DNA of 64,000 nucleotides from assembly GCA_963727455.1 (NCBI GenBank), contig CAVSGG010000007.1, positions 64,001 to 128,000 of the forward strand, given 5' to 3'. The notes below the pieces were generated by a model, which was not told the origin of the DNA, searched no databases, and worked only from the letters and a program-made list of their open reading frames with translations. Shown here piece after piece: positions 12,891 to 27,399 of this stretch. This DNA is from Candidatus Krumholzibacteriota bacterium (lineage in GTDB: Bacteria > Krumholzibacteriota > Krumholzibacteriia > JAJRXK01). The position numbers were made by a program, and so were the translations under genes. Position 1 is the first letter of the stretch; the number at the start of each line of letters is the position of its first letter.

Positions 12891-14009
12891 ATGGCCCATC
12901 TCACCCAGCAGCAAGTCGAAGATACGTTGAAAACGGTGAAATATCCGGGATTTCGGCGCGATATCGTCTCCTTCGGACTGGTCAAGGAGATCCGGATCGA
13001 GGGCGCCACGGTACACGTCCTGCTGGAGCACGGCATCGACGACCTTCAGACCCTACGCTCGATTCAGAAGGATGCCCAGGCGGCTCTGGATGCCCTGCCA
13101 GGAGTGCAGGCGGCCCACCTGGAGCTGCGGGGCAAGGCCAGCGCCCCGAAGGCGGCGCCCAGGAAACCCGGCCCCTCAGCGCACGGCCACCCTCCCGCCG
13201 GCTCGGGCGATCCGTGGGCGGGACAGGCGGCACTGCCCCAAGTGAAATCCATTCTGGCCGTGGCGAGCGCGAAGGGCGGCGTGGGAAAATCGACGGTGGC
13301 TACCAATCTGGCCCTGGCCCTCGCCCGCCGTGGGCAGAAGGTGGGATTGCTCGACGCGGACATCTACGGTCCAAGCCTCCCCACGATGCTGGGGATCGAC
13401 GAGCAGCCGCAGATCTCCGAGGATCGCAAGATCCTGCCGATCCACAAAGAGGGCATCGCCTGCATGTCCATCGGCTTTCTCGTGCCGCGCGACAAGGCCA
13501 TGATCTGGCGCGGCCCCATGGTGATGGGCGCGGTGACCCAGTTCTTGAACGAGGTGGTCTGGGGCGATCTGGACGTGCTCGTGGTGGATCTGCCGCCGGG
13601 CACCGGCGATGCGCAGCTCACGCTCGTACAGAGAGTTCCGCTGAGTGGGGTGATCATGGTGACCACGCCGCAGGATGTCGCACTCATCGACGTGGTGCGC
13701 GGTATTCAGATGTTCGAGGAGACCAAGGTTCCCATCGTCGGCGTGGTGGAGAACATGAGTGGATTCATCTGTCCGCATTGCGGTCACGAGGAAGATGTGT
13801 TTGGAAAGGGTGGGGGCAAGCGGACCAGTGATCGCTTCGGTGTTCCCTATCTGGGGAGCATACCGATCGAGGCCCGCGTCCGCGAGTGCGGAGATACGGG
13901 TCTTCCGGTGGTCGCATCTTCCTCCGAGAGTCCCGCCACCCGGGCCTTCATGGAAGTGGCCCGGCAGGTGGAACTCTTTCTGCGCGAACGAGTCCTCTCT
14001 CGCAGCTAA
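12891..14009 (+). CDS. apbC: Mrp/NBP35 iron-sulfur cluster carrier ATPase
   Basis: VKYPGFRRDIVSFG, ASAKGGVGKST, DADIYGPS, WRGPM, DLPPGTGD, ENMS.F.CPHC. Confidence 0.95.
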   Translation: MAHLTQQQVEDTLKTVKYPGFRRDIVSFGLVKEIRIEGATVHVLLEHGIDDLQTLRSIQKDAQAALDALPGVQAAHLELRGKASAPKAAPRKPGPSAHGHPPAGSGDPWAGQAALPQVKSILAVASAKGGVGKSTVATNLALALARRGQKVGLLDADIYGPSLPTMLGIDEQPQISEDRKILPIHKEGIACMSIGFLVPRDKAMIWRGPMVMGAVTQFLNEVVWGDLDVLVVDLPPGTGDAQLTLVQRVPLSGVIMVTTPQDVALIDVVRGIQMFEETKVPIVGVVENMSGFICPHCGHEEDVFGKGGGKRTSDRFGVPYLGSIPIEARVRECGDTGLPVVASSSESPATRAFMEVARQVELFLRERVLSRS

Positions 14010-14042
14010 GTGCTTAGGATCCATGGCCGAGAGGAGAGACCC

Positions 14043-14513
14043 ATGGTGATGAAACTCCTCAATTACTGTTCGCCCGAACTCTGCTTTGCCTCGTTGAAGG
14101 CGGCGGACCGCAGAGAATGCCTCGAAGTGCTTGTCGACCGCCTGGCCGAGCTCGGGCGCATCAACGACTCACCGGCCCTTCTGGATGCGGTCCTGGCGCG
14201 CGAAGAGATGGAGTCCACCGGAATCGGCGGCGGAATGGCGCTGCCCCACGTGCGCAGCGAGCAGCTCGCGGGCAGCGTGGTGATGATTGCCCATCTGGCC
14301 GAGCCCATCGATTTCAACGCGGCCGACGGTGAGCCCGTCGATCTGATCTTTCTTCTCGTGGGTTCGCGGGAACTCCCCGGTCAACAGCTGCGGGTCCTGG
14401 CCCGGATCTCCAAACTACTGCGTATCGATTCCTTCCTCGCCGCGCTGCGATCGGCGGAGACTCCCGCTGCCATTATGGCCGCTCTGCGCGAAGTCGAAGC
14501 CAAACACTTCTAG
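14043..14513 (+). CDS. Stand-alone PTS EIIA (Ntr/Fru-type)
   Basis: REEMESTGIGGGMALPHVR, DFNAADGEPVDLIFLL, LARISKL. Confidence 0.9.
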   Translation: MVMKLLNYCSPELCFASLKAADRRECLEVLVDRLAELGRINDSPALLDAVLAREEMESTGIGGGMALPHVRSEQLAGSVVMIAHLAEPIDFNAADGEPVDLIFLLVGSRELPGQQLRVLARISKLLRIDSFLAALRSAETPAAIMAALREVEAKHF

Positions 14514-14777
14514 AAGTTTTCGCCTCGGCTCTCTCGCCTTTCCATTTCCCCGCGCTCGCGCGGGCTGCTCGAGAGAAAGAAAAATCTGGGGACTATCGAA
14601 TCTTCTTCTTCCCCATCTCTTTCCAGTTTGCTAGCGTAGTTGCTCTTTCCCGCGGGTAGTAGCGGTCCACGCAGCCAGGGAGGATTTTTCACATCCTGCC
14701 CGTCGTGACTCTCGACCGCTCCTCGCTCGATGATCCGATCGGCGGCCCTTCGCGGCCGTCAGCCAAGGAGCTGGACC

Positions 14778-17700
14778 TTGCGACGCAAACTGGGAATGGC
14801 CGCAACGCTGGCCGTCACGACCCTTTGGGTTCTTCTCGCGCTGGGCGCAACGACCGCGGTGGCACAGCCCACACTGGTCAGCGTTCAGAACACCGACTTG
14901 TCCACTGTGGTCGTCACCTTTTCCGAGAACATCGACACTGTGACCGGGGAAACGGCCTCCAACTACTTTCTTTTCGAGAAGGACACCCCGGGGAATCAAC
15001 CTGGCATTTCCAGCGCGTCAGTCTCGGGAACGGAGGTGACGCTCGCGCTCGCCACTCCCCTCACCGGAGGTGTGGTCTACACCCTGCGGGTGCAGAACGT
15101 GGAGAACACTTCGAACCAGCCCATCTCTGGCGTGCCCGCTTTGGATTTCACTGCCACGGGAGGCAGCAGCGCCACTCCGATCGCAGACATTCAAGGAAAC
15201 GAAGCTGCCTACGACGGTCAGGTCGTCACGGTGGAAGGCGTGGTGTACATCCCGACCAATTACCGGGGCACCACGATTTCCGGTTACATCCAGGACAGCT
15301 CGGGACGCGGGATCAACCTCTTCGGCAGCGGGATGGACGTGGCCGAGCTTCAGGCCGTGGGCAATCGCGTGAGCGTCACCGGCACCGTATCTACTTACTT
15401 CACCACGGTGGAAATCACCAATCCCACCGACGTGACGCTCCTCTCTAGCGGCAATCCCCTGCCCACCGCGGCGCAGCTTTCTACGGGGGCGGCGGCCAAC
15501 GCGCAGTGGGAAGGGACTTTCATCGAGGTCACCGGGACCATCAGCGCGCAGGCCGTGTCAGGACCGGGGACCAACTACACGATTAACGACGGTTCGGGAC
15601 CGATTGACGTGCGCGTCGTGGACACACTTAGCGCTCCTAACTTCAGTAACGGCACCACCATCACCGCGCGTGGCGCGGGAGGAGCTTTCTCCACCACCTT
15701 CCAGGTCTTGGTGGGCGCGGCTTCTGACGTTTCTACTGCGGGTCCTACGGAGCTCGCGGTGAGCGACGCCTCGGCCAGCGACGCGACCACGGTGGTCGTC
15801 AACTTCAACAAGGCCATCGATGCGGCTAGCGCGAGCGATCCTGGATCGTTCAGCGTCTATCCCACGGGGCAGCCGGGAAGTCCCTTCAGCGTGACCGCAG
15901 TGAGCCCCGCCAGCGCGAGCGTCACTCTCACTCTGGGATCTTCGCTCAGTGACGGAGTGTCCTACACCGTCGAGGTGGCCGACGTCGAAGACACCGGCGG
16001 CGGCGTCATCGGCAGCAGCAACTCGGCGAGCTTCACCTTCACTGCCTCGAGCGCGACTTCCATTGCCACCATTCAGGCCAATCCCTCTTCCTATGATGGC
16101 CAGGTGGTCACGGTGGAAGGCGTGGTCTACATCCCCAGCGACTATCGCGGGGCCACCATTTCCGGTTACATCCAGGACAGTTCGGGTCGGGGGATCAATC
16201 TCTTCGGCTCGGGCTTTGACGTTCCGGCCGCCCAGACCGTGGGCAACCGGATCCGAGTGACCGGTACCGTCTCCCTGTACTTCAGTACCGTGGAGATTTC
16301 CAATCCGACCGAAGTGACGGTGCTCTCGGGCGACAATCCGCGGCCGTCGGCGGTGCAGCTCAGCACGGGCGCTGCGTCCAGCAGCGACTGGGAAGGTACT
16401 TTCATCGAGGTCACCGGAACCATCAGCTCGCAGGCGGTGGGAGGACCGGGGACCAACTACACGGTGAATGACGGCTCGGGTACGATCGTCGTTAGGGTCG
16501 TGGACACTCTGGGCGCGCCGAGCTACAGCAACGGCACCACGATCACCGCGCGGGGTGCGGGTGGATACTTCGACCCCGACTACCAGGTACTGGTGGGTCT
16601 GGTCAGCGACATCAGCACCGGCGGCGGGGCCGATACCGATCCCCCCACCGTGACCGGAGCCAGCGCTACTTCTGCCAACTCCGTCAGCGTGAATTTCAAC
16701 GAGCCTCTGGACTCGACCACCGCGCAGAGTGCGAGCAACTATCAGCTTTATGAGACCTCCGCTCCGGCCAACACCATCATGGTGAGCGGTGCGACGCTGG
16801 TCGGAAGCAAGGTCACCCTGAGCCTCGGCTCCGACATGACGGATGGGACTTCTTATACCGTTTCGGTCACGGGCGTGGAGGACCTCGCGGGAAACGTGAT
16901 CGCGGGCAGCAACACTGCTTCCTTCACCTACACCGCATCCAACGCCACTCCCATTGCCACCATTCAGGCCAATCCCTCTTCCTATGATGGCCAGGTGGTC
17001 ACGGTGGAAGGCGTGGTCTACATCCCCAGCGACTATCGCGGGGCCACCATTTCCGGTTACATCCAGGACAGTTCGGGTCGGGGGATCAATCTCTTCGGCT
17101 CGGGCTTTGACGTTCCGGCCGCCCAGACCGTGGGCAACCGGATCCGAGTGACCGGTACCGTCTCCCTGTACTTCAGTACCGTGGAGATTTCCAATCCGAC
17201 CGAAGTGACGGTGCTCTCGGGTGACAATCCGCGGCCGTCGGCGGTGCAGCTCAGCACGGGCGCTGCGTCCAGCAGCGACTGGGAAGGTACTTTCATCGAG
17301 GTTACCGGAACCATCAGCTCGCAGGCGGTGGGAGGACCGGGGACCAACTACACGGTGAATGACGGCTCGGGTACGATCGTCGTTAGGGTCGTGGACACTC
17401 TGGGCGCGCCGAGCTACAGCAACGGCACCACGATCACCGCGCGGGGTGCGGGTGGATACTTCGACCCCGACTACCAGGTACTGGTGGGTCTGGTCAGCGA
17501 CATCAGCACCGGCGGCGGAGCCGATACCGATCCCCCCACCGTGACGACCGCAAACGCCAGCTCTGCAACTTCCGTCAGCGTGAACTTCAATGAAGCCCTG
17601 GACACCGCGACGGCGCAGACCGCGAGCAACTACCAGGTGTTCGAGACCGCCACTCCCGCGAATACCTTCGCGGTGAGCAGCGCCGCTCTCAACGGCAGCC

Positions 17701-19088
17701 GCGTTACTTTGACTCTGGCGTCCGGGCTGACCGAGGGTACCTCGTACACCGTCTCCGTGAGCAACGTGGAGGATGTGGCGGGGAACGTGATCGCGGGGAG
17801 TAATACGGCGGTCTTTACCTACACTGCATCCAATGCGATTCCCATCGCCACCATTCAGGCCGATCCCGAGAGCTACGATGGCCAGGTGGTCACGGTGCAG
17901 GGCGTGGTGTACATCCCCAGCGACTACCGCGGCGCCACGACCTCGGGTTACATCCAGGATTCCTCGGGTCGAGGGATTAACGTCTTCGGCAGCGGCTTCA
18001 ACGTCGCGGCCACACAAACCGTGGGCAACCAGGTCGAGGTGACGGGAACGGTCTCTCTCTACTTCACCACGGTCGAAATCACCAATCCGACGACGGTGAA
18101 GGTGCTTTCGGGCGGCAATCCGCGACCGCCGGTAGCCCAGCTCTCCACTGGGGCGGCGGCCAACGGGCAGTGGGAGGGGACCTTCATCGAGGTCTCCGGA
18201 CCGATCACTGCGCAAGCGGTTGCGGGTCCCGGCGTGAATTACACGGTGAACGACGGCTCGGGGCCGATCGACATTCGCGTGGTGGACACGCTTAGCGCAC
18301 CCACCTTCAGCAACGGCACCACCATCACGGCACGCGGCGCGGGTGGTTTGTTCGGGAGCACCTATCAGGTGAATGTGGGATTGGCGAGCGACATTTTCGA
18401 GGGCAAGCCTGACGACACCTCGCCTCCAAGAATCGACCGAGCCAGCCTGGAAACCGCCTCGACGGTGATCATCGATTTCAGCGAGGGGCTGGAGCCGAGT
18501 TCCGCCACTGCGAGTTCCAATTACCAGGTCTATCGCACCAACGCTCCCTCGCAAACCGCCGGGGTGGTCAGTGCCGAATTCGCGTCGGGATCGGCGAACC
18601 GTATCCGTCTGACCCTCGACCGTAACCTGGGACTGGAGGAGAACTGGTCGGTGCGCGTGACGGGGGTGGCCGACCTGAATGGCAACGCCATCCCGGCGCC
18701 CGGGCTGACCGCCAACCTCGCACCTCTCCTGGTGGACGCCATCAAGTTGGAGGGTCCACCCTTCACTTTCCTGCCTCGCGACGGCGAGCGCTATCCGCTG
18801 ACCATCAATCTCACTTCCGATCTCATCGCGAAAAACGGCGAAGTGATCCTGAGAATCTTCAACATGAACGGGACTCTCGTGAAGACTCTATTCGACAGTC
18901 GAGTGACGACACTCGAGTCCGTATTCAACGACAACCGGGCGACCTTCGAGTGGGACGGCAAGGACGAATTCGGCGAGTTTGTACCGGCCGGCGCATACGT
19001 AGCACACCTGCAGACGCGCTCCACCGGTAGCGACGGATCCAAAGAGAAGCAGATGCCCGTGGTCGTGGCATCGCGCTTGGACCGATAG
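14778..19088 (+). CDS. Secreted multidomain protein: signal peptide, (Ig-OB-OB)x4, Ig, and FlgD/T9SS type-B-like CTD; putative nucleic-acid-binding surface protein
   Basis: AAGGAG RBS with TTG 14778. Four copies of PIA.IQ..YDGQVVTVEGVV..GYIQD.SGRGI..G.R..VTGTV..YF..VEI followed by WEGTFIEVTG..NYT.NDGSG (YhcR/ExeM-like OB folds). Five V.V.F.E.LD..TA...SNY Ig domains. C-terminus IFNMNGTLVK..WDGKD..VPAGAY. Confidence 0.8.
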   Translation: MRRKLGMAATLAVTTLWVLLALGATTAVAQPTLVSVQNTDLSTVVVTFSENIDTVTGETASNYFLFEKDTPGNQPGISSASVSGTEVTLALATPLTGGVVYTLRVQNVENTSNQPISGVPALDFTATGGSSATPIADIQGNEAAYDGQVVTVEGVVYIPTNYRGTTISGYIQDSSGRGINLFGSGMDVAELQAVGNRVSVTGTVSTYFTTVEITNPTDVTLLSSGNPLPTAAQLSTGAAANAQWEGTFIEVTGTISAQAVSGPGTNYTINDGSGPIDVRVVDTLSAPNFSNGTTITARGAGGAFSTTFQVLVGAASDVSTAGPTELAVSDASASDATTVVVNFNKAIDAASASDPGSFSVYPTGQPGSPFSVTAVSPASASVTLTLGSSLSDGVSYTVEVADVEDTGGGVIGSSNSASFTFTASSATSIATIQANPSSYDGQVVTVEGVVYIPSDYRGATISGYIQDSSGRGINLFGSGFDVPAAQTVGNRIRVTGTVSLYFSTVEISNPTEVTVLSGDNPRPSAVQLSTGAASSSDWEGTFIEVTGTISSQAVGGPGTNYTVNDGSGTIVVRVVDTLGAPSYSNGTTITARGAGGYFDPDYQVLVGLVSDISTGGGADTDPPTVTGASATSANSVSVNFNEPLDSTTAQSASNYQLYETSAPANTIMVSGATLVGSKVTLSLGSDMTDGTSYTVSVTGVEDLAGNVIAGSNTASFTYTASNATPIATIQANPSSYDGQVVTVEGVVYIPSDYRGATISGYIQDSSGRGINLFGSGFDVPAAQTVGNRIRVTGTVSLYFSTVEISNPTEVTVLSGDNPRPSAVQLSTGAASSSDWEGTFIEVTGTISSQAVGGPGTNYTVNDGSGTIVVRVVDTLGAPSYSNGTTITARGAGGYFDPDYQVLVGLVSDISTGGGADTDPPTVTTANASSATSVSVNFNEALDTATAQTASNYQVFETATPANTFAVSSAALNGSRVTLTLASGLTEGTSYTVSVSNVEDVAGNVIAGSNTAVFTYTASNAIPIATIQADPESYDGQVVTVQGVVYIPSDYRGATTSGYIQDSSGRGINVFGSGFNVAATQTVGNQVEVTGTVSLYFTTVEITNPTTVKVLSGGNPRPPVAQLSTGAAANGQWEGTFIEVSGPITAQAVAGPGVNYTVNDGSGPIDIRVVDTLSAPTFSNGTTITARGAGGLFGSTYQVNVGLASDIFEGKPDDTSPPRIDRASLETASTVIIDFSEGLEPSSATASSNYQVYRTNAPSQTAGVVSAEFASGSANRIRLTLDRNLGLEENWSVRVTGVADLNGNAIPAPGLTANLAPLLVDAIKLEGPPFTFLPRDGERYPLTINLTSDLIAKNGEVILRIFNMNGTLVKTLFDSRVTTLESVFNDNRATFEWDGKDEFGEFVPAGAYVAHLQTRSTGSDGSKEKQMPVVVASRLDR
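16060..17545 (+). repeat. Intragenic direct repeat: two 595-bp copies (16060-16654 and 16951-17545)
   Basis: Manual alignment at an offset of 891 bp shows only three differences, all synonymous (GGC/GGT, GTC/GTT, GGG/GGA). Confidence 0.95.
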
Positions 19089-19101
19089 GAGGCACGGCTC
19101 A

Positions 19102-20016
19102 ATGCAATCGAAACGAACTCCGATTCTCCTGCTGCTGCCTCTGCTCTTGCTGGTCGCGACCAGCGCCCGGGCGGCCTTCGACGACCTCGCGGTGAGTCCG
19201 CGAGCGCGCGCCATGGGTTCGGCCGTGGTTGCGGTCGACGGCGATGCCTGGAGTTTTTACAACAACCCGGCGCTCTTGCCCTGGTTGGATAAGCCGGCAG
19301 CGGCCGCGGCGACTGCCGAACCCAACAACGGCGGGTACAACCGTCTGAGCACTCTGGGGGGAGCGATGCCCCTCCCGGGAAACTGGGGCGGTCTGGCAAT
19401 AGGCCTTCGGCACCTGGGTGTCGACAACAACGGCACGAGCCTTTTGAGCGAATACACGATCTCCGTTTCCAACGGATTTCAACTCTTCAAGGACGAAGCT
19501 TCCGGCGCGGCGGTGGGTTGGACCCTGAACTTCTACAACCTCGACTTCGGGCAGAGCATCGGGCTGGCCGGGGACGGAAGCAACGGGATCGACCCGGGCA
19601 ATGCCTGGGCTACCGGGCTGGATCTCGCTGGAATCGTGGAGGTATGGGACCGCACGAAGATTGGCTTCGTCGCCAAGAATATCAACAATCCCACGATTGG
19701 TGACGACAACGAGGAACTCATCCAGCAGGTGGCCATCGGAGTGAGCTATCAGCCTTACGAACAGGTCACGACCGCGTTCGACATCCGTAGCCGCGTGGGG
19801 GAGGAGTTCCGGGTCCACGGCGGGGCCGAGTTCGGTGTTCTCGACGTACTCGATCTGAGGGCGGGGCTCGAAACCGATCCCAACAAACTCTGCGCCGGAT
19901 TCGGAGTTCACTTTCACGGCGCCACGCTCGACTACGCTTTCTCCACCGGGGGAGGCGTTCTCGAGTCGACGCATCAATTCGGTCTGAGCTATCGCTTCTC
20001 GGGAGGGGGGGAGTAG
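19102..20016 (+). CDS. PorP/SprF- or PorV-like outer-membrane beta-barrel
   Basis: Signal peptide, SPRARAMGSA..FYNNPALL, about 300 aa, ends STHQFGLSYRF; lies directly after a CTD-bearing gene. Confidence 0.75.
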   Translation: MQSKRTPILLLLPLLLLVATSARAAFDDLAVSPRARAMGSAVVAVDGDAWSFYNNPALLPWLDKPAAAAATAEPNNGGYNRLSTLGGAMPLPGNWGGLAIGLRHLGVDNNGTSLLSEYTISVSNGFQLFKDEASGAAVGWTLNFYNLDFGQSIGLAGDGSNGIDPGNAWATGLDLAGIVEVWDRTKIGFVAKNINNPTIGDDNEELIQQVAIGVSYQPYEQVTTAFDIRSRVGEEFRVHGGAEFGVLDVLDLRAGLETDPNKLCAGFGVHFHGATLDYAFSTGGGVLESTHQFGLSYRFSGGGE

Positions 20017-20017
20017 C

Positions 20018-22600
20018 GTGAACGCTCCGCGCGAGAGCATGCGGCGCGGACTCCTCCTGGCGGCGGCCTTGTGTCTGTTGCCCGTGGCGAGTTCTCATGC
20101 CCAATACGAGCAAGGGGACACCCGCCGGGAAGCCATCGAGGCTGGCAAACTCCAGGCGGACGAATCTTTGACTCGGGGAAAGCTCGACCTCAACCGTGCG
20201 ACGCGACAGCAGCTGAAGAAGCTGCCGATCCCCGCCGATGTGGCCGACGCCATCTACGAGTACCGCACTTACCGCAGTTACTTCGATTCGATCTACGATC
20301 TGCGCCATGTCGAGGGCGTCACTCCGGAAATGATCAAGGAACTCCTGCCTCTCGTCGCGACGATGCCGCCCAAGACCCAGGAAGACTGGGTACGACGTTA
20401 CGACGAGTCATTTCGGCAATTGCAGAGATTCTTGAGCCGGGAGGGCGCGAGCGAGGAGTTGGCGGATGAATACCGTGACCAGCTGCTCGAACCTCGTGAC
20501 ATCAACGAACTCTCGCTCTACGACCTGCAGAGCTACCAGAATGTCTCGCCGGTGGATGCAACTGCGATCATCAAGGCGCGCGAGCGCTCGGGAAAGATCC
20601 AGAGCCAGCGTCAGCTGCGCAGCGCGGATGGTCTGACTTACTGGGCGTACCGGAATCTGCGCGACTACGTGGTCTACGAGCCGCCGGAGCAGGACATGAA
20701 GCTCCACGGCAGCATGCAGTTGCAGACCTTCAATACTCCCTATCTACTGGATGAGAAGGATCTTTTGACCGAGACCTTCCATCCGGCAGTCACTAGTACC
20801 GAGCCGCCAGAGTTCTCAGAGGAAACTCCCTACGGGCTCAAACATCTGGACAGCCCCAACCCGGCGGTACTGACCAAGCTGCGACTGCGCATGGGACTGC
20901 AGTGGAAGGCCGGAGTGAGCACTTTCCGCGACGTCGGGGAGAAGAATCTGGCTGAAACCGCCAAGTACTTCCTCGAATGGCGTAATCAAAACAATAATAG
21001 GAACCAGCTGGACAAAGTGGTGCTGGGCAACTTCCGTGTCGCGTTCGGGCAGGGTTTGGTGATGGACAACACCGACTACTTCCTGAGCCGTAAGACAGGC
21101 ACGGGCTTCAACAAGCGTCCCCAGGGACTCTTGGGCGACATGAGCCGTTCCTACGAGTTTGCTCTTCGCGGCGCAGCGGCCGAAGCGTCGCTGGGGAAGT
21201 TCCAGCTCCTGGGTTTCGTCAGCAGCGGGAAGAAGGATGGAATCCTCAATTACGATTCCGATGGCAACGCGCTGAGTATCAACAAGTACATCGTGGGAAG
21301 CCCGCGCTTCGAAAATTCCGAGTACGAGCAGATGGAAAGCAACATCCGCCGGGGTGCCTTTGACGAAGATCTGTACGGTGGCTTGGCGCGCTACGAACTC
21401 TGGCCCGGAACCTACGTGGGCCTTTCCGGTTACGAGGCGCACTACAACCTTCCCTTCGATCCCAACGTGAACACGATCGTGGCCCGCACTGATCTTTTGG
21501 ATGGCAGAGATTCCGAGCTGTTCAACGCCTACGATTCCAGACAATTGGGCAAGTTCCGACGGGTGCTGGGGGCCGAGTTCCAGACCGTGGTGGACAACGT
21601 CGCCTTCCAGGGTGAGTACGCGAAACTCGATTCGAATCCCGACGGGGGACTGCTCTCCAACGCTCCGGACGCCATGGTGTTCACCGGCTACACGCAGTGG
21701 GAGAACTTCAACATCTTTGCCCTCTATCGCGACTACGACGTGGGCTTCGACAATCCCTACGCGCGACCCTTCGGTGAGGACAGTCGCTACGAGCAGACTC
21801 TGCTCACCGATCCCTTCCGCCTGAATTCACCGCTCTACTCTTGGCTCGAGACGAGCACGCCGCAGACCAAGGCCGAGCGCGGCATCTTCTTGCAGACGCG
21901 CTACCGCATCAGCCGGCAGATCACCATCAGCGGTCTGGAATTCGACCAGTGGGTGCGCAAGGCTGATGGTCAGAGTCAGCGCCGCTACACCTTACGGGTG
22001 GAATACGCGCCCGTGTGGCCGATTCGATTCCGCGTGCGCCAGCGCTATAGCGATCGCGCCGGCGAGGAGCTCTTGGACAACCGGCGCTTCAAGAGCTGGG
22101 ACAGTCGCTTCGAGGTACGGGGGCGTCTCTCGGCCTACGACGAACTGCGCTTGCTCTACAGCAATACCAACACCCAGTTCGCCCCACGTCCGCGTCTGAG
22201 CGGCTTGGCTGAGCCCACCGATCCCCAGGGCTACACTTACACCCCCTTATCGCAAGCCGCCAGCCCCAGCAAGGCCATCCAGGGCATGCTGATCCACAAC
22301 GTCAACGATCGCCTCCAGTTCACGCTGAGCACGGAAGTCTACGACGGCTTCTTGTGGAACTTCGAGGACAACGAGTTCATCGCAGTCGATGGTCAGGGCA
22401 TCCGCAGCTGGTTCCTCGTTCAGAGTCGGCTCTCGGACAGCATGCTCGTACGCTTCAAGATGACCCACGACCGGCAACGCACGCGAAACAACTTGCAGAT
22501 TCGCGATTATCCCAATTCCGCGCCGAGACCTGAAGATTTCCATACGGGCGACAAGCGGGAAATCACGGCCTTCCGCCTCCAGCTCGACTACAACTTCTAG
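20018..22600 (+). CDS. Outer-membrane protein with two ComEA-type helix-hairpin-helix domains and a C-terminal beta-barrel
   Basis: LDLNRATRQQLKKLP..ADAIYEYR..FDSIYDLRHVEGV and DINELS..L..VSPVDATAII.AR; GNFRVAFGQGLV; terminal AFRLQLDYNF BAM-type signal. Confidence 0.8.
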   Translation: MNAPRESMRRGLLLAAALCLLPVASSHAQYEQGDTRREAIEAGKLQADESLTRGKLDLNRATRQQLKKLPIPADVADAIYEYRTYRSYFDSIYDLRHVEGVTPEMIKELLPLVATMPPKTQEDWVRRYDESFRQLQRFLSREGASEELADEYRDQLLEPRDINELSLYDLQSYQNVSPVDATAIIKARERSGKIQSQRQLRSADGLTYWAYRNLRDYVVYEPPEQDMKLHGSMQLQTFNTPYLLDEKDLLTETFHPAVTSTEPPEFSEETPYGLKHLDSPNPAVLTKLRLRMGLQWKAGVSTFRDVGEKNLAETAKYFLEWRNQNNNRNQLDKVVLGNFRVAFGQGLVMDNTDYFLSRKTGTGFNKRPQGLLGDMSRSYEFALRGAAAEASLGKFQLLGFVSSGKKDGILNYDSDGNALSINKYIVGSPRFENSEYEQMESNIRRGAFDEDLYGGLARYELWPGTYVGLSGYEAHYNLPFDPNVNTIVARTDLLDGRDSELFNAYDSRQLGKFRRVLGAEFQTVVDNVAFQGEYAKLDSNPDGGLLSNAPDAMVFTGYTQWENFNIFALYRDYDVGFDNPYARPFGEDSRYEQTLLTDPFRLNSPLYSWLETSTPQTKAERGIFLQTRYRISRQITISGLEFDQWVRKADGQSQRRYTLRVEYAPVWPIRFRVRQRYSDRAGEELLDNRRFKSWDSRFEVRGRLSAYDELRLLYSNTNTQFAPRPRLSGLAEPTDPQGYTYTPLSQAASPSKAIQGMLIHNVNDRLQFTLSTEVYDGFLWNFEDNEFIAVDGQGIRSWFLVQSRLSDSMLVRFKMTHDRQRTRNNLQIRDYPNSAPRPEDFHTGDKREITAFRLQLDYNF

Positions 22601-22610
22601 GGAGTATCCC

Positions 22611-23978
22611 ATGCGTGGCACGATTCGTAGAAGCTCACTGTTCATCCTGTTGGTTCTGCTGTTGCAGGCAGTGGCAGTTCCCGGAGCGGTGGCAACGACC
22701 ACTTTGGATGCGGCCTTCGGGACGCCCTTCGGCGCGCAAACTCCACGAGCGGCGGCCATGGGCTCGGTGGGGGCGGCCCTCTACCAGGGCAGCGCCAATC
22801 TCGTCGCGAACCCGGCGATGCTGTCGCGGATGGACGGCCGGCTGCGGGTCGAATTCAATGGCGGCATTTCCCAGGTCAACGAGGATCGTTACCAGCCGCT
22901 CTTCGACTCCTTCGAGTCCTACCTGACGGACACCGTGGTGGCCAGCAATCGCAACAGCTACGGCCTCTTGCAGGGTGGCGCAATCTATCAGCTTCTGCCC
23001 GAACATCAGGTGACGGTGGGGATTGGGATCTTCGACCGCTACAGCTTCGACTACGACTACTTCGAGGAGATTCGCGATACCAACACCTCCAACGTTCCCT
23101 CCCGTGACGCGGTGGTTCAGTTACGCGACTACCAGATCGACGGCAGGCTGCGCTCGATCACCTTTGGCTATGGAATGGAGATCACGCCCCGGCTCAGAAT
23201 GGGGATCAGCCTCCATCGCTACACCGGCACACTGACGCACACGGCCAACACGCGCACCACCGCCCTCTATCTGAATACCTTCACTAGCGATCCGGGATCG
23301 GCCGCCTTCGAGCATGAACTTCGCGGTTGGGGCTGGACGGCCGGACTCGCCGGCACGGTGAACGAGCGCCTGGATGTGGGAGCGAGCTTCGAGGGGCCGT
23401 TCACGGTGCAGGGAGCGATCAGTTCCATGGACTCGACGATCGGCAGCTGGATGCCCTACGATCAGAGCGTTGTCGTGATGCCGGTGACGAGTGGCGACGT
23501 CAAGGTCAAGTACCCCGGAACGCTGCGGGCGGGCGTTAGCTATCGCCCCCGCAACCTCTTGACCACCGTGTTTTCGGTGGACCTCGTGCGCCGCTTCTGG
23601 GAAGGCGTGGCCGACGAGAGCTACCGGACCGCGGCCTTCGTTTCTCGCGGTACTCTGCGCGATACCTGGGACCTGCGCTTCGGGCTGGAGCACGTCTTCT
23701 ACAACAACGTGCCAGCGCGTTTCGGCTTCCGCTACCTCGAGAACTACGCCGATCCGGAATCGAATCGCTCGATCTTTTCCGGCGGCGTGGGCTACGAATC
23801 CGCGGGATACAAGTTCGACGTGACTCTGCAGTACCATCGGCAAACCAGCCGGCAGGCCTTCATTTTCGACCGCACTCTGACCTGGTCGGACGGTCAGGTC
23901 GATCCGGGGCCTACCAGCCTCTCGAAAGTGGAAGATGGAATGGTGAGTCTGTTGCTGGGGGTCTCCCGAAATTTCTAA
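22611..23978 (+). CDS. FadL/PorV-superfamily outer-membrane barrel
   Basis: Signal peptide, PRAAAMGSVG..NLVANPAML hatch motif, amphipathic strands, terminal Phe. Confidence 0.7.
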   Translation: MRGTIRRSSLFILLVLLLQAVAVPGAVATTTLDAAFGTPFGAQTPRAAAMGSVGAALYQGSANLVANPAMLSRMDGRLRVEFNGGISQVNEDRYQPLFDSFESYLTDTVVASNRNSYGLLQGGAIYQLLPEHQVTVGIGIFDRYSFDYDYFEEIRDTNTSNVPSRDAVVQLRDYQIDGRLRSITFGYGMEITPRLRMGISLHRYTGTLTHTANTRTTALYLNTFTSDPGSAAFEHELRGWGWTAGLAGTVNERLDVGASFEGPFTVQGAISSMDSTIGSWMPYDQSVVVMPVTSGDVKVKYPGTLRAGVSYRPRNLLTTVFSVDLVRRFWEGVADESYRTAAFVSRGTLRDTWDLRFGLEHVFYNNVPARFGFRYLENYADPESNRSIFSGGVGYESAGYKFDVTLQYHRQTSRQAFIFDRTLTWSDGQVDPGPTSLSKVEDGMVSLLLGVSRNF

Positions 23979-24039
23979 TTTTACTATCTTCCTAGGAAGG
24001 ACGAAGCCCACCCACGGCGGAAACCCCCGGGAGTCAGCC

Positions 24040-25719
24040 ATGCGAGCCAAAACCCTACTTCTCATCTTCAGCCTCAGCATTCTCCTCGTCCCCAGCGCGC
24101 GGGCCGAAGACGAGGGGATGATCCGTCTCCATCTCTTGTGGACGAACGACATCCACGGCCACGTTGGGCCCGAGGAAGCGCGCTTCATGAATCCCGACTT
24201 CCCGCCTCCTCTGGGCGGTGGCGCGGCGGCGGCGGCCTACGTGCACAAGGTGAGGGCCGAGGTCAAAGGCGATCCCAACCAGGCAGTCCTCTTGGTCGAT
24301 GCGGGGGATACCTGGCAGGGAGCCCCGGTGGGCACCTTGAGCCAGGGCAGGGTCATGGAGACCTACTTCAACACCATGCACTACGACGCGGTGACGGTGG
24401 GGAATCACGAATTCGACAAGGGCAAGGACGTTCCCATTCGCATGTCGGCCGCGATGAAGCAGAAGTTCGTCTGCGCCAACATCTACAAGGAGGGCACCGA
24501 CGAGCTGGTCGACTGGGTCGTGCCCTATCGCGTGGTTGAGAAGGCCGGCCTCAAGATCGGGATCATCGGCGCCATCACTCCGGCGACCAAGTCCATGGCC
24601 TTCGACGAGAACGTGAAGGGTCTGGATTTTAGGCCCATTCCTCCCGCGCTCGAAAAGTACCGCGATATCCTGAAGAACAAAGAACACGTCGACCTGGTCT
24701 TTGCGCTCATCCACGAGGGTTTGCCCTACGATCCCGAAACTGGCTGGAAGCAGTTGGTGAAGCGGGTGAAGGAGGGCGACGATCTCCAGGACCACGCTCA
24801 GGGCGACATGGGCATCGCGCACGTGGTCACGGGAATTCCCGTCGTCATCGGCGGCCACACGCACCGGGGCTACCGCAAGCCTTGGATCGATCCGGTGACG
24901 CAGGCCATGGTCTTCGAGACCTTTGGAAACGGCTCCTCCATCGGACACGTGGAGATCCTCATCGACCGGGCGACCAAGCAGGTGATGGGCTACGAGAGCC
25001 CGCGCCGCGACGGTACCCTCATCACGCTCTTCGAGGACCAGTACTGGCCGGACCCCGAGATGGCCAAGGATCTGGAGCCCTACATCGCCGACGCCCGTAA
25101 GGGCCTGGACAAGACGGTGGGAAGGTCGGCGGTGGAGCTCTCGCGCAACGGCGGACCGCTCTCGCGTATGGGAATCCTCGTAACCTCGGCCATGCTGGAG
25201 GCGCAGAACGGCGATTTCGCCTTCACGAACCTGGGCGGGCTGCGAGCGAACCTCTCGGCAGGCCGCATCACCATGGGTGATCTGATGCAGGTCTTGCCCT
25301 TCGGCAACGCCTTGGCCACGGTCCAGATGGATGGCTCGATGATCCGCCGCATCTTCGAGCGCAAGACGGGTCGCAACAGCAGTGGCATTGCCTACAGTGG
25401 AGTGAAGGCCGTAGTCGATCCGGATGCGCCGTACGGTCAGCGGGTGCTGCAGCTCACCCTGCTCGATGGAACCCCCATCGTGCCAGGGAAGGACTATAAG
25501 GTCGTCACCAGCGACTTCCTCATGGAGGGAAACAGCGGACTGGACTTCCTGGCCGAGATCCCGCCCGACAAGATCAACTACACCGGCATGCTGACCCGGG
25601 AGGCCCTGGCGGACTACATCAAGGCCCACTCGCCGGTCTCCCCGCATTCGGATGACCGTTTCAAGGAGGACGTGGGGGGCGCCCGCGCCACATACCTGAA
25701 GCCCCTGGACCTGCAGTAA
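24040..25719 (+). CDS. Exported bifunctional metallophosphatase / 5'-nucleotidase (UshA family)
   Basis: Signal peptide; TNDIHG, DAGD, GNHEFD, GGHTH; C-domain NLGGLRA and LPFGN. Confidence 0.92.
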   Translation: MRAKTLLLIFSLSILLVPSARAEDEGMIRLHLLWTNDIHGHVGPEEARFMNPDFPPPLGGGAAAAAYVHKVRAEVKGDPNQAVLLVDAGDTWQGAPVGTLSQGRVMETYFNTMHYDAVTVGNHEFDKGKDVPIRMSAAMKQKFVCANIYKEGTDELVDWVVPYRVVEKAGLKIGIIGAITPATKSMAFDENVKGLDFRPIPPALEKYRDILKNKEHVDLVFALIHEGLPYDPETGWKQLVKRVKEGDDLQDHAQGDMGIAHVVTGIPVVIGGHTHRGYRKPWIDPVTQAMVFETFGNGSSIGHVEILIDRATKQVMGYESPRRDGTLITLFEDQYWPDPEMAKDLEPYIADARKGLDKTVGRSAVELSRNGGPLSRMGILVTSAMLEAQNGDFAFTNLGGLRANLSAGRITMGDLMQVLPFGNALATVQMDGSMIRRIFERKTGRNSSGIAYSGVKAVVDPDAPYGQRVLQLTLLDGTPIVPGKDYKVVTSDFLMEGNSGLDFLAEIPPDKINYTGMLTREALADYIKAHSPVSPHSDDRFKEDVGGARATYLKPLDLQ

Positions 25720-25761
25720 AGTCCCCGGAGCCGCTGCCCCAGGAGGTCGAATTTTGGTCAG

Positions 25762-25793
25762 GGGAGTCTTGCCGCGATGCGAGACTCCCTTTT
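25762..25793 (+). terminator. Rho-independent terminator ending the OB/HhH/nucleotidase operon
   Basis: GGGAGTCTTGC-cgcgat-GCGAGACTCCC followed by TTTT. Confidence 0.75.
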
Positions 25794-26121
25794 CCTTTTG
25801 CAAGCCTCCCCGCTTCCTCCCGTGGCGTTTTCCCTGAGCAAAATTCCCTGAATTTGTCGCCGCCGTGCGTCGGCGAAGCCTCCCCTGCGAGGTAGCTCAG
25901 GGGCGCTGCCCTTCCCATGATTCCCCATGGGGGAGCGCTCTTCCCCGCCATCTGTGGGACGAGGCCCTGGGGCTGGACCATGGGTCAGAAGGCCTAGGAG
26001 CGGGGATTCGCTTCCGGTCTTTATCCTGCATGTCCGTCAGCTACCAAGAGCGTCGCTTCGTGCGCCGGGGGGGCGCAGAGGTCACGACCGCGGCTCGCCC
26101 GCCCATCTGGAGGAGATTCCC

Positions 26122-27399
26122 TTGGCTCAACCGGCACGGTGCCTCGTGACTTCCGATCGCGTCCGGCTCGATCCGAGTCAGCGCAACCCTCAACTCACCC
26201 GATTTCATGAACTGATGCAGAAAATGGTGGTCGGCCAGCCGAGCGCCCTGGAGACCGTCACCAATTCCTTTTCCAGGCTCTTGGCGGGGATCCACGACCC
26301 GGAAAGTCCCATTCTCACCATGATGCTCCTGGGGCCGACCGGAGTGGGGAAGACCGAGACCGTTCGCTGTTTGGCCGAAGCCCTCTTCGGCAGCCGTAAG
26401 GCCTTCACCCGCGTGAACTGTCAGGAATATTCGGCCCACTACAACCTCTCGAAGCTCTTGGGAAGCCCACCAGGCTACGTGGGGGGCGAGATCAAGCCGC
26501 TGCTCTCCTCGGAGAACTTGGAGCGGCACTACAAGAAGGCGGTCGAGGAAGGACTGGGCCTCTTCCAGGACAGCCTGGGTAGCTTTTCCAACGCGGACGA
26601 GGAGGGAGGGCTCTCGCTCGTGCTCTTCGACGAGATCGAAAAGGCCCATCCCAAGCTCTGGAGCATGTTGCTTGGCATCCTGGAGGACGGGAATCTGGTG
26701 CTGGGGAACAACGAGGAAGTCGATTTCCGGCGCAGCATCATCGTGCTCACCACCAACGTGGGGAGCGAGGCCATGGGCAAGCACCTCTCGCATCAGGACA
26801 TCGGTTTCTACGACGACGACGACGAGGAACGCGTCGACCGCGATGTACACGAAGCCGCCCTGCGCGAAGCCCGCAAGGTCTTTCCTTTTGAGTTCTTGAA
26901 TCGCTTCGACGAGCTGATCAGCTACGACACCCTCAAGGAATCGCACCTCTACCAGATTCTGGACAATCTCATCGCTGACATCCACATCCGCAGCATCAGT
27001 TGCACCGAACCCTTCCTCTTGCGCGTCAGCCCCAAGGCGAAAGAGATACTGGTGCAGGAGGGGCACGACCCGCGCTTTGGCGCGCGTCCCCTGCGCCGCG
27101 CGGTCGAGAGCAAGCTCGTGACGCCCATCGGCCACCTCATCTCGAGCGGGCAGGTGGTACGCGGAGATCTCATCACGGTCGATTTCACAGACGAATTCAT
27201 TTTCGAGAAGGAACCCGGGGTAATGACTGCGGAGGAAATCGCGGCCTTCGAACGGCAGAAGCTCGAGAAGGAGAAGAGCCGCGATCTGGACGGAATCGAC
27301 GACGGTGGCGAAGCCAATCGCATCGTGGAAGAAGTCGACGAGGTGCTGGCGCGGGGCCTGACCCTGAGAGAGAGCAGCAGCATTCCCGGCGACATCTGA
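26122..27399 (+). CDS. Single-domain Clp-family AAA+ ATPase (ClpA/B/C D2-like)
   Basis: GGAGGAG RBS with TTG; VVGQ, GPTGVGKTET, LLGSPPGYVG, LFDEIEKAHP, EFLNRFDE, FGARPLRR. Confidence 0.88.
   Translation: MAQPARCLVTSDRVRLDPSQRNPQLTRFHELMQKMVVGQPSALETVTNSFSRLLAGIHDPESPILTMMLLGPTGVGKTETVRCLAEALFGSRKAFTRVNCQEYSAHYNLSKLLGSPPGYVGGEIKPLLSSENLERHYKKAVEEGLGLFQDSLGSFSNADEEGGLSLVLFDEIEKAHPKLWSMLLGILEDGNLVLGNNEEVDFRRSIIVLTTNVGSEAMGKHLSHQDIGFYDDDDEERVDRDVHEAALREARKVFPFEFLNRFDELISYDTLKESHLYQILDNLIADIHIRSISCTEPFLLRVSPKAKEILVQEGHDPRFGARPLRRAVESKLVTPIGHLISSGQVVRGDLITVDFTDEFIFEKEPGVMTAEEIAAFERQKLEKEKSRDLDGIDDGGEANRIVEEVDEVLARGLTLRESSSIPGDI

Follow-up and report, generated by a model that had tools for sequence, protein, structure and literature searches.

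We analysed a 64,000-nucleotide stretch of a Candidatus Krumholzibacteriota genome (GenBank assembly GCA_963727455.1, contig CAVSGG010000007.1, positions 64,001 to 128,000 of the forward strand; hereafter the window). Our subject is a gene in this window for an outer-membrane β-barrel protein that carries two ComEA-like helix-hairpin-helix (HhH) domains in front of the barrel. It is the third of five same-strand genes separated by gaps of 13, 1, 10 and 61 bases, with a hairpin at the end (Table 1). The architecture is real and unstudied, and it lies in a strongly conserved operon that handles nucleic acids. The literature we searched, which included few subscription papers, contained no study of the HhH barrel or its operon.

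Table 1. Features of the HhH-barrel operon, in window coordinates. ORF, open reading frame; T9SS, type IX secretion system; Ig, immunoglobulin.
Feature	Coordinates	Strand	Basis or remark
Predicted surface protein, 1452 aa; five Big_5 Ig-like domains, four OB-pair modules in tandem, FlgD/T9SS-like sorting domain at the C-terminus	14730..19088	+	
PorV/PorQ-like small outer-membrane barrel	19102..20016	+	NF033709, E 1.2e-15, 58 bits, under the 90-bit cut-off
HhH-barrel gene, 860 aa	20018..22600	+	ORF call; GTG start; protein end ...FRLQLDYNF
Sec signal peptide, residues 1-28, end S-H-A	20018..20101	+	Inspection; model helix 6-19
HhH domain 1 (HhH1), residues 55-113; ComEA fold, net acidic, first hairpin 1 residue short	20180..20356	+	
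Acidic linker, residues 140-156	20435..20485	+	Conserved E142, G143, E146, D150, D154
HhH domain 2 (HhH2), residues 159-221	20492..20680	+	Near-invariant D180 at the ComEA K63 position; aromatic/Arg helix 205-217
Outer-membrane barrel, residues 229-860; 24 predicted strands, C-terminal Phe	20702..22597	+	AlphaFold2, fold search
Loop L3, residues 343-382; one of the best-conserved segments	21044..21163	+	Invariant G344, D350, D353, R358, G361, R367, D374, R377
Strand 17, residues 669-680; inward arginine ladder	22022..22057	+	Family mean 4.6 K/R, 0 D/E over 6 inward positions
FadL/BamG-like outer-membrane barrel, 455 aa	22611..23978	+	Toluene_X above cut-off; BamG E 2.7e-13, far under cut-off
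UshA-type 5'-nucleotidase, 559 aa	24040..25719	+	Metallophos and 5_nucleotid_C
13-bp hairpin and T-rich tail, probable operon terminator	25760..25801	+	

Architecture of the HhH-barrel protein

The protein has the hallmarks of an outer-membrane barrel, namely a signal peptide, an even number of amphipathic strands, short periplasmic turns and a C-terminal aromatic residue. AlphaFold2, run on a 119-row alignment, produced a model with a mean predicted local distance difference test (pLDDT) score of 85.2 and a predicted template modelling (pTM) score of 0.83, in which we counted 24 long strands over residues 229-859. Strand connections in the model alternate between turns of 2-6 residues and loops of 5-46 residues (mostly 10 or more). 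An even strand number puts both termini of a barrel on the periplasmic side; the HhH domains, which stand ahead of strand 1, are therefore placed on that side. All 50 matches listed in a wide fold search are membrane β-barrels. The best of them is the 24-strand usher FimD (3ohn) with a Z score of 15.0, a root mean square deviation (rmsd) of 4.8, 369 aligned residues and 10% identity, and a second usher, PapC (2vqi), follows at Z 14.8.

The N-terminal part contains two stretches matching Pfam HHH_3 (57.1 bits; cut-off 27), each of which alone exceeds the cut-off in the genome search (36.5 and 29.1 bits). The best structural match of the isolated N-terminal fold is ComEA of G. stearothermophilus (8dss; Z 12.2, rmsd 1.2 Å, 64 residues). 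GspK and PsbU share the (HhH)2 fold in the structure search, and in these two proteins the fold does not bind DNA. Against solved sequences the protein gave only weak HhH matches (EEPD1 and ComEA, E 0.009-0.4), and its barrel has no solved relative there. The reading frame has an alternative ATG start at 20039. Much of this bears out an earlier sequence-only reading of the same DNA, which had described two ComEA-like (HhH)2 domains and a barrel of about 620 residues ending in LDYNF (we find about 630), and had proposed structure prediction for strand number and HhH location.

We scored 7,998 candidates and found 225 homologs at E<=0.001, nearly all of them full length among the top 120 listed. 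The closest genome match, at 91% identity, comes from a Ca. Krumholzibacteriota record, and other relatives are in records labelled Krumholzibacteriota, Eisenbacteria, Latescibacterota and others. Look-alike clusters in the Atlas, which we treat as leads, are commonest in WOR-3, Fidelibacterota, Cloacimonadota and Bacteroidota. Two queries of viral contigs returned no confirmed relative. Three further architectures were also seen: a 1251-residue natural fusion with a TPR region ahead of a two-HhH barrel (P0185), a protein with about six canonical ComEA-like repeats and then the apparent start of an endonuclease/exonuclease/phosphatase (EEP) nuclease (P0256), and a 1723-residue coiled coil carrying seven HhH stretches (P0250).

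The lumen of the barrel is predicted to be basic. Inward-facing strand positions carry a family mean of 29.8 K/R versus 17.3 D/E. One heuristic, applied to the three barrel families of the operon, gave inward K/R and D/E counts of 28.0/15.2 for the HhH barrel, 8.7/6.7 for the PorV-like barrel and 14.7/13.9 for the FadL-like barrel. Loop L3 probably folds into this lumen. Covariation over 380 sequences (effective number, Neff, 200 for 860 columns) recovers the expected strand and HhH contacts and ties L3 to strands 10-13 (T362-A529, z 18; V348-A568; V348-V516). Weak signals link the acidic linker with L3 (A149-Y354, R141-N365), and one pair connects HhH2 with a periplasmic turn (Y211-V666). In structural alignments, moreover, the model matches the N-terminal segments of TonB receptors, FadL and CdiB from about residue 130-140 onwards, and residue 207 falls where VDAC begins; in all of these proteins the N-terminal segment sits inside the lumen. 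Taken together, these observations suggest a pore that is narrowed and capped rather than an open channel for long double-stranded DNA. The linker, with a family mean of 5.1 D/E versus 0.7 K/R, is a possible gate element. A complex prediction for barrel residues 226-860 with the PorV-like protein scored 0.20 and 0.15 against a mark of 0.32, which we count neither for nor against a complex.

We then compared hairpin residues between 208 non-redundant family members and free ComEA proteins from the same phylum (best 30 of 81). ComEA function in Vibrio cholerae is abolished by K63E, K62/63A, G60E and G60V (PMC3879209), and K164 of Bacillus subtilis ComEA is the counterpart of K63 (PMC9747964). 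The G60-equivalent glycine occurs at the four family hairpins in 4/204, 3/204, 0/207 and 3/207 sequences, versus 30/30 at both hairpins of free ComEA. At the K63 equivalent of HhH2 the residue is acidic in 200/207 (Asp in the window protein) and K/R in 0/207. The corresponding HhH1 position is K/R in 10/203, and the HhH1 lysine-pair positions are acidic in 131/204 and 137/206. The free ComEAs of the phylum also lack the K63 lysine (30/30), with an acidic residue there in 0/30, so glycine loss together with charge reversal is diagnostic and lysine loss alone is not. In these free ComEAs (L170-L199, 30/30), V/A/T and L/I/M/T occupy the first-hairpin K62/K63 positions, and K/R is shifted to the second hairpin in 22/29. 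HhH2 carries a conserved Arg/aromatic surface (R198, R201, Y208, W209, Y211, R212, R215), and its helix may provide a different mode of nucleic-acid binding or may pack on the barrel. Two tethered HhH domains would not be able to load in numbers along incoming DNA, unlike free ComEA.

Neighbouring genes, relatives and genome context

The surface protein upstream matches Pfam Big_5 five times and FlgD_ig weakly (E 0.028). Over four stretches it also weakly resembles the N-terminal, non-catalytic region of ExeM/NucH, and its C-terminus weakly matches PorU; Pfam and NCBIfam scans found no catalytic domain in it. Its OB pair is homologous to modules of related loci that match DUF5689 (hhalign P 96, E 2e-9). 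DUF5689, the family of DdbD (PMC12478041) and RA0C_RS04920 (PMC8459023), is matched by three related surface proteins; a profile from these three segments gave no direct match to the window protein, and the link is one of profile-profile comparison. No catalytic Pfam family was found in the 18/18 surface proteins scanned, which contain OB, LTD, Big_5, PKD or CBM56 instead. Orthologs range from about 500 to 2,200 residues with exchange of LTD, Big_5, PKD and CBM56 modules. The window protein has near-identical internal repeats of an Ig plus OB-pair unit, and two opposite-strand ORFs inside its gene (16166-16456 and 17057-17347) have identical translations.

The PorV-like barrel is the probable cognate shuttle or anchor of this surface protein. 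At the end of the operon, the 5'-nucleotidase has intact metal motifs (DxH, GD, GNHE, H, GGHxH) and appears to be periplasmic, with a signal peptide and no sorting domain. The terminator hairpin is supported by position rather than significance, since 5 terminator-like sites were found versus 8.6 in shuffles. The region 14000-26500 yielded no sigma-70-type promoter. A single-ring Clp-type AAA ATPase (25927-27399) follows the operon in 52/79 genome loci, and a gene resembling EIIA of the phosphotransferase system (PTS; 14010-14513) is nearby in 55/79; neither recurs as a neighbour in the distant metagenome clade.

Gene order is kept in nearly all of 159 related loci, comprising the best 79 of 206 genome loci and the best 80 of 415 metagenome loci from a more distant clade. 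Partners present in the 79 genome loci number 79 for the PorV-like gene, 75 for the surface protein, 73 for the FadL-like gene and 66 for the nucleotidase. Counting only loci with room for the partner, the values are 78/79, 71/72, 73/73 and 61/61 for genomes and 68/69, 58/58, 76/76 and 51/53 for metagenomes. The sole PorV-like miss among genomes (L070) is an artefact of an over-long reading frame, and the PorV-like gene lies directly upstream of the HhH barrel in 79/79 genome loci. The FadL-like gene is next downstream in every genome and metagenome locus with room.

Across the related loci, the nucleic-acid hydrolases belong to four unrelated folds: the 5'-nucleotidase, a ComEC-type metallo-β-lactamase (MBL) domain, EEP nucleases and endonuclease I. 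The sequence-only reading had taken the nucleotidase and OB neighbours as a hint of function, and the wider comparison supports a conserved nucleic-acid context. An MBL lipoprotein is inserted in 16/79 genome loci. EEP domains are found in 51/80 metagenome loci, often fused to a metallophosphoesterase, and endonuclease I in 8/80. The MBL lipoprotein (L002:13955-15340 and 15 other loci) has an N-terminal domain with no family and stands between the FadL-like gene and the nucleotidase; in some loci it is in one frame with the nucleotidase. We rejected a resistance enzyme as its identity, as the β-lactamase matches are weak and far under cut-off and the best match is ComEC.

Elsewhere in the genome, SprA is encoded by a separate 2,200-residue gene. 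The genome as a whole gave ten matches to the PorV family (E<1e-13) and 69 C-terminal matches of the FlgD_ig type; a T9SS-like export route is therefore present. This T9SS-like system lies outside Bacteroidota (genome region G000:C8:7012-13570). A survey of 151 genomes from the phylum detected SprA in 150, free ComEA (by a single-protein query) in 81, and the HhH barrel in 65, mostly in two families, by profile matches that may miss distant paralogs. Such patchiness next to near-universal SprA fits an accessory nutrient locus. Endonuclease I and EEP proteins with sorting-domain-like tails are also encoded elsewhere in the genome, which has six TonB_C matches, none of them in the operon.

The genome holds a free ComEA gene followed by pilB, pilT and pilC, as well as a secretin and ComEC, and with this separate set the barrel is not needed for transformation. 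The type IV pilus locus (G000:C5:394561-414130) comprises comEA, pilB, pilT, pilC, a sensor/regulator pair, pilins and a prepilin peptidase; pilM-Q were assigned by appearance, and a 633-residue ORF with no useful family match lies ahead. A second cassette (G000:C8:58564-62548, minus strand; L082:3565-7549) has a plan similar to the main operon, with a 545-residue two-LTD protein bearing a CHU_C/FlgD-like tail, a 263-residue barrel-like ORF with no family match, and a one-HhH protein of about 531 residues with a barrel-like tail. This last protein aligns to the main family over the HhH domain only. A single query placed the cassette in 11/151 genomes, at least one of which is only an HhH-domain match.

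In Bacteroidota, which we covered through four records, a divergent family member used as query retrieved 680-residue "helix-hairpin-helix domain-containing proteins" of Bacteroides, Phocaeicola and Parabacteroides. The homolog is very common in Bacteroidales (3,117 matches among 8,000 scored). The protein of Bacteroides finegoldii (WP_237924592.1) aligns as a homolog across 569 columns, a range that takes in the barrel (hhalign P 99.6, E 9e-24), and the statement in the sequence-only reading that Bacteroidota relatives are annotated merely as HhH-domain proteins thus concerns true homologs. They differ from the window protein in having one HhH domain, shorter loops and no scavenging operon. 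The L3 motif and a basic strand 17 (4/4 homologs) are common to both groups, and all four homologs lack any hairpin glycine. Neighbouring genes include nadA, an RNA methyltransferase, DUF4294 and a radical SAM gene. The literature searched held no characterisation of this homolog. We take BT3167, picked by gene order, to be the probable Bacteroides thetaiotaomicron ortholog; its annotated name is that of an HhH protein and, like the B. finegoldii homolog, it has a rubrerythrin gene nearby. In an iron-dependent stimulon table it is listed at -3.7 (p 0.024; PMC10434189).

Two proteins described as essential for transformation, PGN_0421 of Porphyromonas gingivalis (ComEA domain 94-165) and RA0C_RS02645 of Riemerella (three HhH, periplasmic), fit short ComEA and are set apart from the barrel by their descriptions only. 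PG1035, a lead for an HhH-barrel protein, proved wrong, as it is tied to type B C-terminal-domain proteins.

Candidate roles of the barrel

We propose that the HhH barrel is a gated channel for DNA or RNA fragments, the entry pore through which a nucleic-acid scavenging locus brings them across the outer membrane, and from sequence and model we put the probability of this reading at roughly 0.5. An import role is plausible because the operon is conserved, nucleic-acid enzymes accompany it and the inward face of the barrel is basic. We infer four steps. The OB/Ig surface protein would be exported through SprA, stay anchored at the surface on a PorV-like barrel of its own and gather DNA or RNA, by analogy with known cargo-shuttle pairs (PMC12618676). 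Secreted nucleases, encoded in the operon in some relatives and elsewhere in this genome, would cut the polymer. Fragments could then enter the basic lumen, which L3 would narrow and which the acidic linker and HhH2 would close on the periplasmic side; polyanions might displace this gate. Finally, periplasmic nucleases and the 5'-nucleotidase would free nucleosides and phosphate, and hydrolysis would maintain the gradient without TonB or a pilus. The HhH domains would act as a cap or scaffold, at most as a weak catcher, and not as a ComEA-type ratchet. More tentatively, and with somewhat less confidence than we have in the entry pore itself, the locus could represent a new class of importer without TonB, pili or secretins: an arginine-lined 24-strand pore, a gate made of ComEA domains and a DNA-mimicking linker, and a T9SS-delivered OB-fold lid on a PorV-like anchor.

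Several observations weigh against the entry-pore proposal. Basic pores also pass other polyanions, as AlgE and OprP do. The window operon itself contains no nuclease, and the related loci are partly redundant, so their counts measure conservation and not independent events. The plug and gate geometry leans on shallow covariation and on alignment ranges; several N-domain covariation pairs are mutually inconsistent, and the linker and HhH2 pairs are leads. No nuclease, nucleotidase or surface-protein neighbour was found in 4/4 Bacteroidales loci, and the PorV-like gene is upstream in only 1/4 (Parabacteroides). Furthermore, B. thetaiotaomicron takes up DNA through a TonB-dependent transporter locus (PMC12478041, bioRxiv 2025.03.18.642099).

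An export or anchoring platform, in which the usher-sized barrel and its PorV-like and FadL-like partners pass or hold the OB/Ig protein, is unlikely in our view. DNA would then be digested outside or enter via other pores, and the HhH part would be structural, as the degenerate hairpins and the GspK and PsbU precedents allow. The PorV-like gene is the most constant neighbour and recurs in Parabacteroides, the second cassette repeats the trio of LTD/CTD-like protein, small barrel-like ORF and HhH-barrel-like ORF, the nearest folds are ushers, which pass folded Ig-like domains, and SprA pairing with PorV offers a model. However, SprA is present in nearly every genome of the phylum and the Flavobacterium cognate cargo-shuttle pairs are T9SS substrates (PMC12618676), so no extra export pore is needed. 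B. finegoldii keeps the barrel with no PorV-like or cargo neighbour, no SprA match was found in a B. thetaiotaomicron control genome, and the arginine ladder and co-transcribed periplasmic hydrolases are left unexplained.

The sequence-only reading had favoured a single-chain channel plus ratchet for nucleic-acid import. The barrel, the ComEA fold and the genomic context are supported, and the ratchet is not: the hairpin glycines are lost, the lysine positions have turned acidic where free ComEAs show no acidic residue, HhH1 is net acidic, the conserved L3 appears to fill the lumen, and a complete competence set lies elsewhere in the genome. A ComEA-type ratchet that draws long stretches of double-stranded DNA through to the periplasm, whether for transformation or as food, is accordingly improbable, more so than an export platform. 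In its favour, ComEA is the best structural match, the domains are on the periplasmic side of an usher-sized barrel, the missing K63 is not decisive alone, and the HhH2 Arg/aromatic surface could offer a new mode of nucleic-acid binding. How DNA crosses the P. gingivalis outer membrane is also stated to be unclear (PMC11532111). Against it, no HhH gene of about 680 residues is identifiable among the 16 genes of a non-saturating Riemerella screen of 3,000 mutants, and the HhH match is by its description a three-HhH periplasmic protein. We give equally little credence to a general outer-membrane function apart from nucleic acids, such as handling a different polyanion or taking part in the envelope; the operon would then have been recruited in particular lineages, and the HhH part would be a plug. 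The orphan context and great abundance in Bacteroidales favour it, as does the iron response that is the only entry for BT3167 (PMC10434189). Against it stand the hydrolases of four folds linked across two clades at 30-45% identity, as well as the L3 motif and the basic strand 17, both of which the Bacteroidales proteins also have.

If the entry-pore proposal is true, nucleic acids would have a further way across the outer membrane, through a gated 24-strand pore that has DNA-gathering and hydrolytic partners; to our knowledge, the routes described so far are secretin/pilus machines, conjugation-type systems and, recently, the TonB-dependent DdbC. Krumholzibacteriota, Eisenbacteria and marine relatives could then live on extracellular DNA, and the gene would be a marker for its recycling by uncultured lineages of marine and sediment habitats. 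An outer-membrane protein that is very common in Bacteroidales but unannotated would also gain a function, one that is testable in gut Bacteroides. If the barrel is an assembly pore instead, it would be a new T9SS satellite outside Bacteroidota.

Comparison with known systems

The HhH-barrel protein is not a member of ComEA, the TonB-dependent transporters, the ushers or the T9SS core. With ComEA (PF12836, TIGR01259/TIGR00426; PDB 8dss, 8dfk, 2duy) it shares the (HhH)2 fold and the periplasmic side. However, ComEA is small and soluble or membrane-anchored, whereas the window protein is an 860-residue fusion of two copies to a barrel, with the hairpin glycines lost and acidic residues at DNA-contact positions, and it falls under both TIGR cut-offs (TIGR01259 48.9 bits vs 152.35). 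The ushers FimD and PapC share the 24-strand barrel (Z ~15, rmsd ~5 Å), but identity is about 10%, there is no usher family match and the operon has no chaperone or pilin genes. The window protein also has a helical N-terminus, ends at its last strand and lacks the β-sandwich plug and the N and C domains. The usher match is generic barrel likeness. The succession of a surface-protein gene and a cognate small barrel is also seen for SprA-PorV and type B cargo-PorP/SprF of the T9SS (PMC12618676), but the HhH barrel is not SprA, and it occurs in 65/151 genomes versus 150/151.

TonB-dependent transporters such as DdbC and SusC have 22 strands and an N-terminal plug, whereas the window protein has 24 strands with its HhH domains in the place of the plug domain. 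No TonB-receptor or Plug family matched the HhH barrel in Pfam or NCBIfam at E<=0.1, and in these family scans both large barrels of the operon lacked a TonB-receptor match. Bacteroides ddbABCDEF and the related Riemerella uptake pair RA0C_RS04915/04920 (PMC12478041, bioRxiv 2025.03.18.642099, PMC8459023) have in common with our locus an outer-membrane transporter gene, secreted and periplasmic nucleases, DUF5689-type OB modules and a logic like that of polysaccharide utilisation loci (PULs). This clustering of transporter, nucleases and DUF5689-type protein is found at the level of the family; the window copy has the nucleotidase only and an indirect DUF5689 link. Unlike ddb, with its TonB-dependent DdbC, our locus has PorV-like and FadL-like partners and a T9SS-type surface protein. 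Overall, the locus most likely functions in the manner of a Ddb/PUL-type utilisation locus with a new type of channel.

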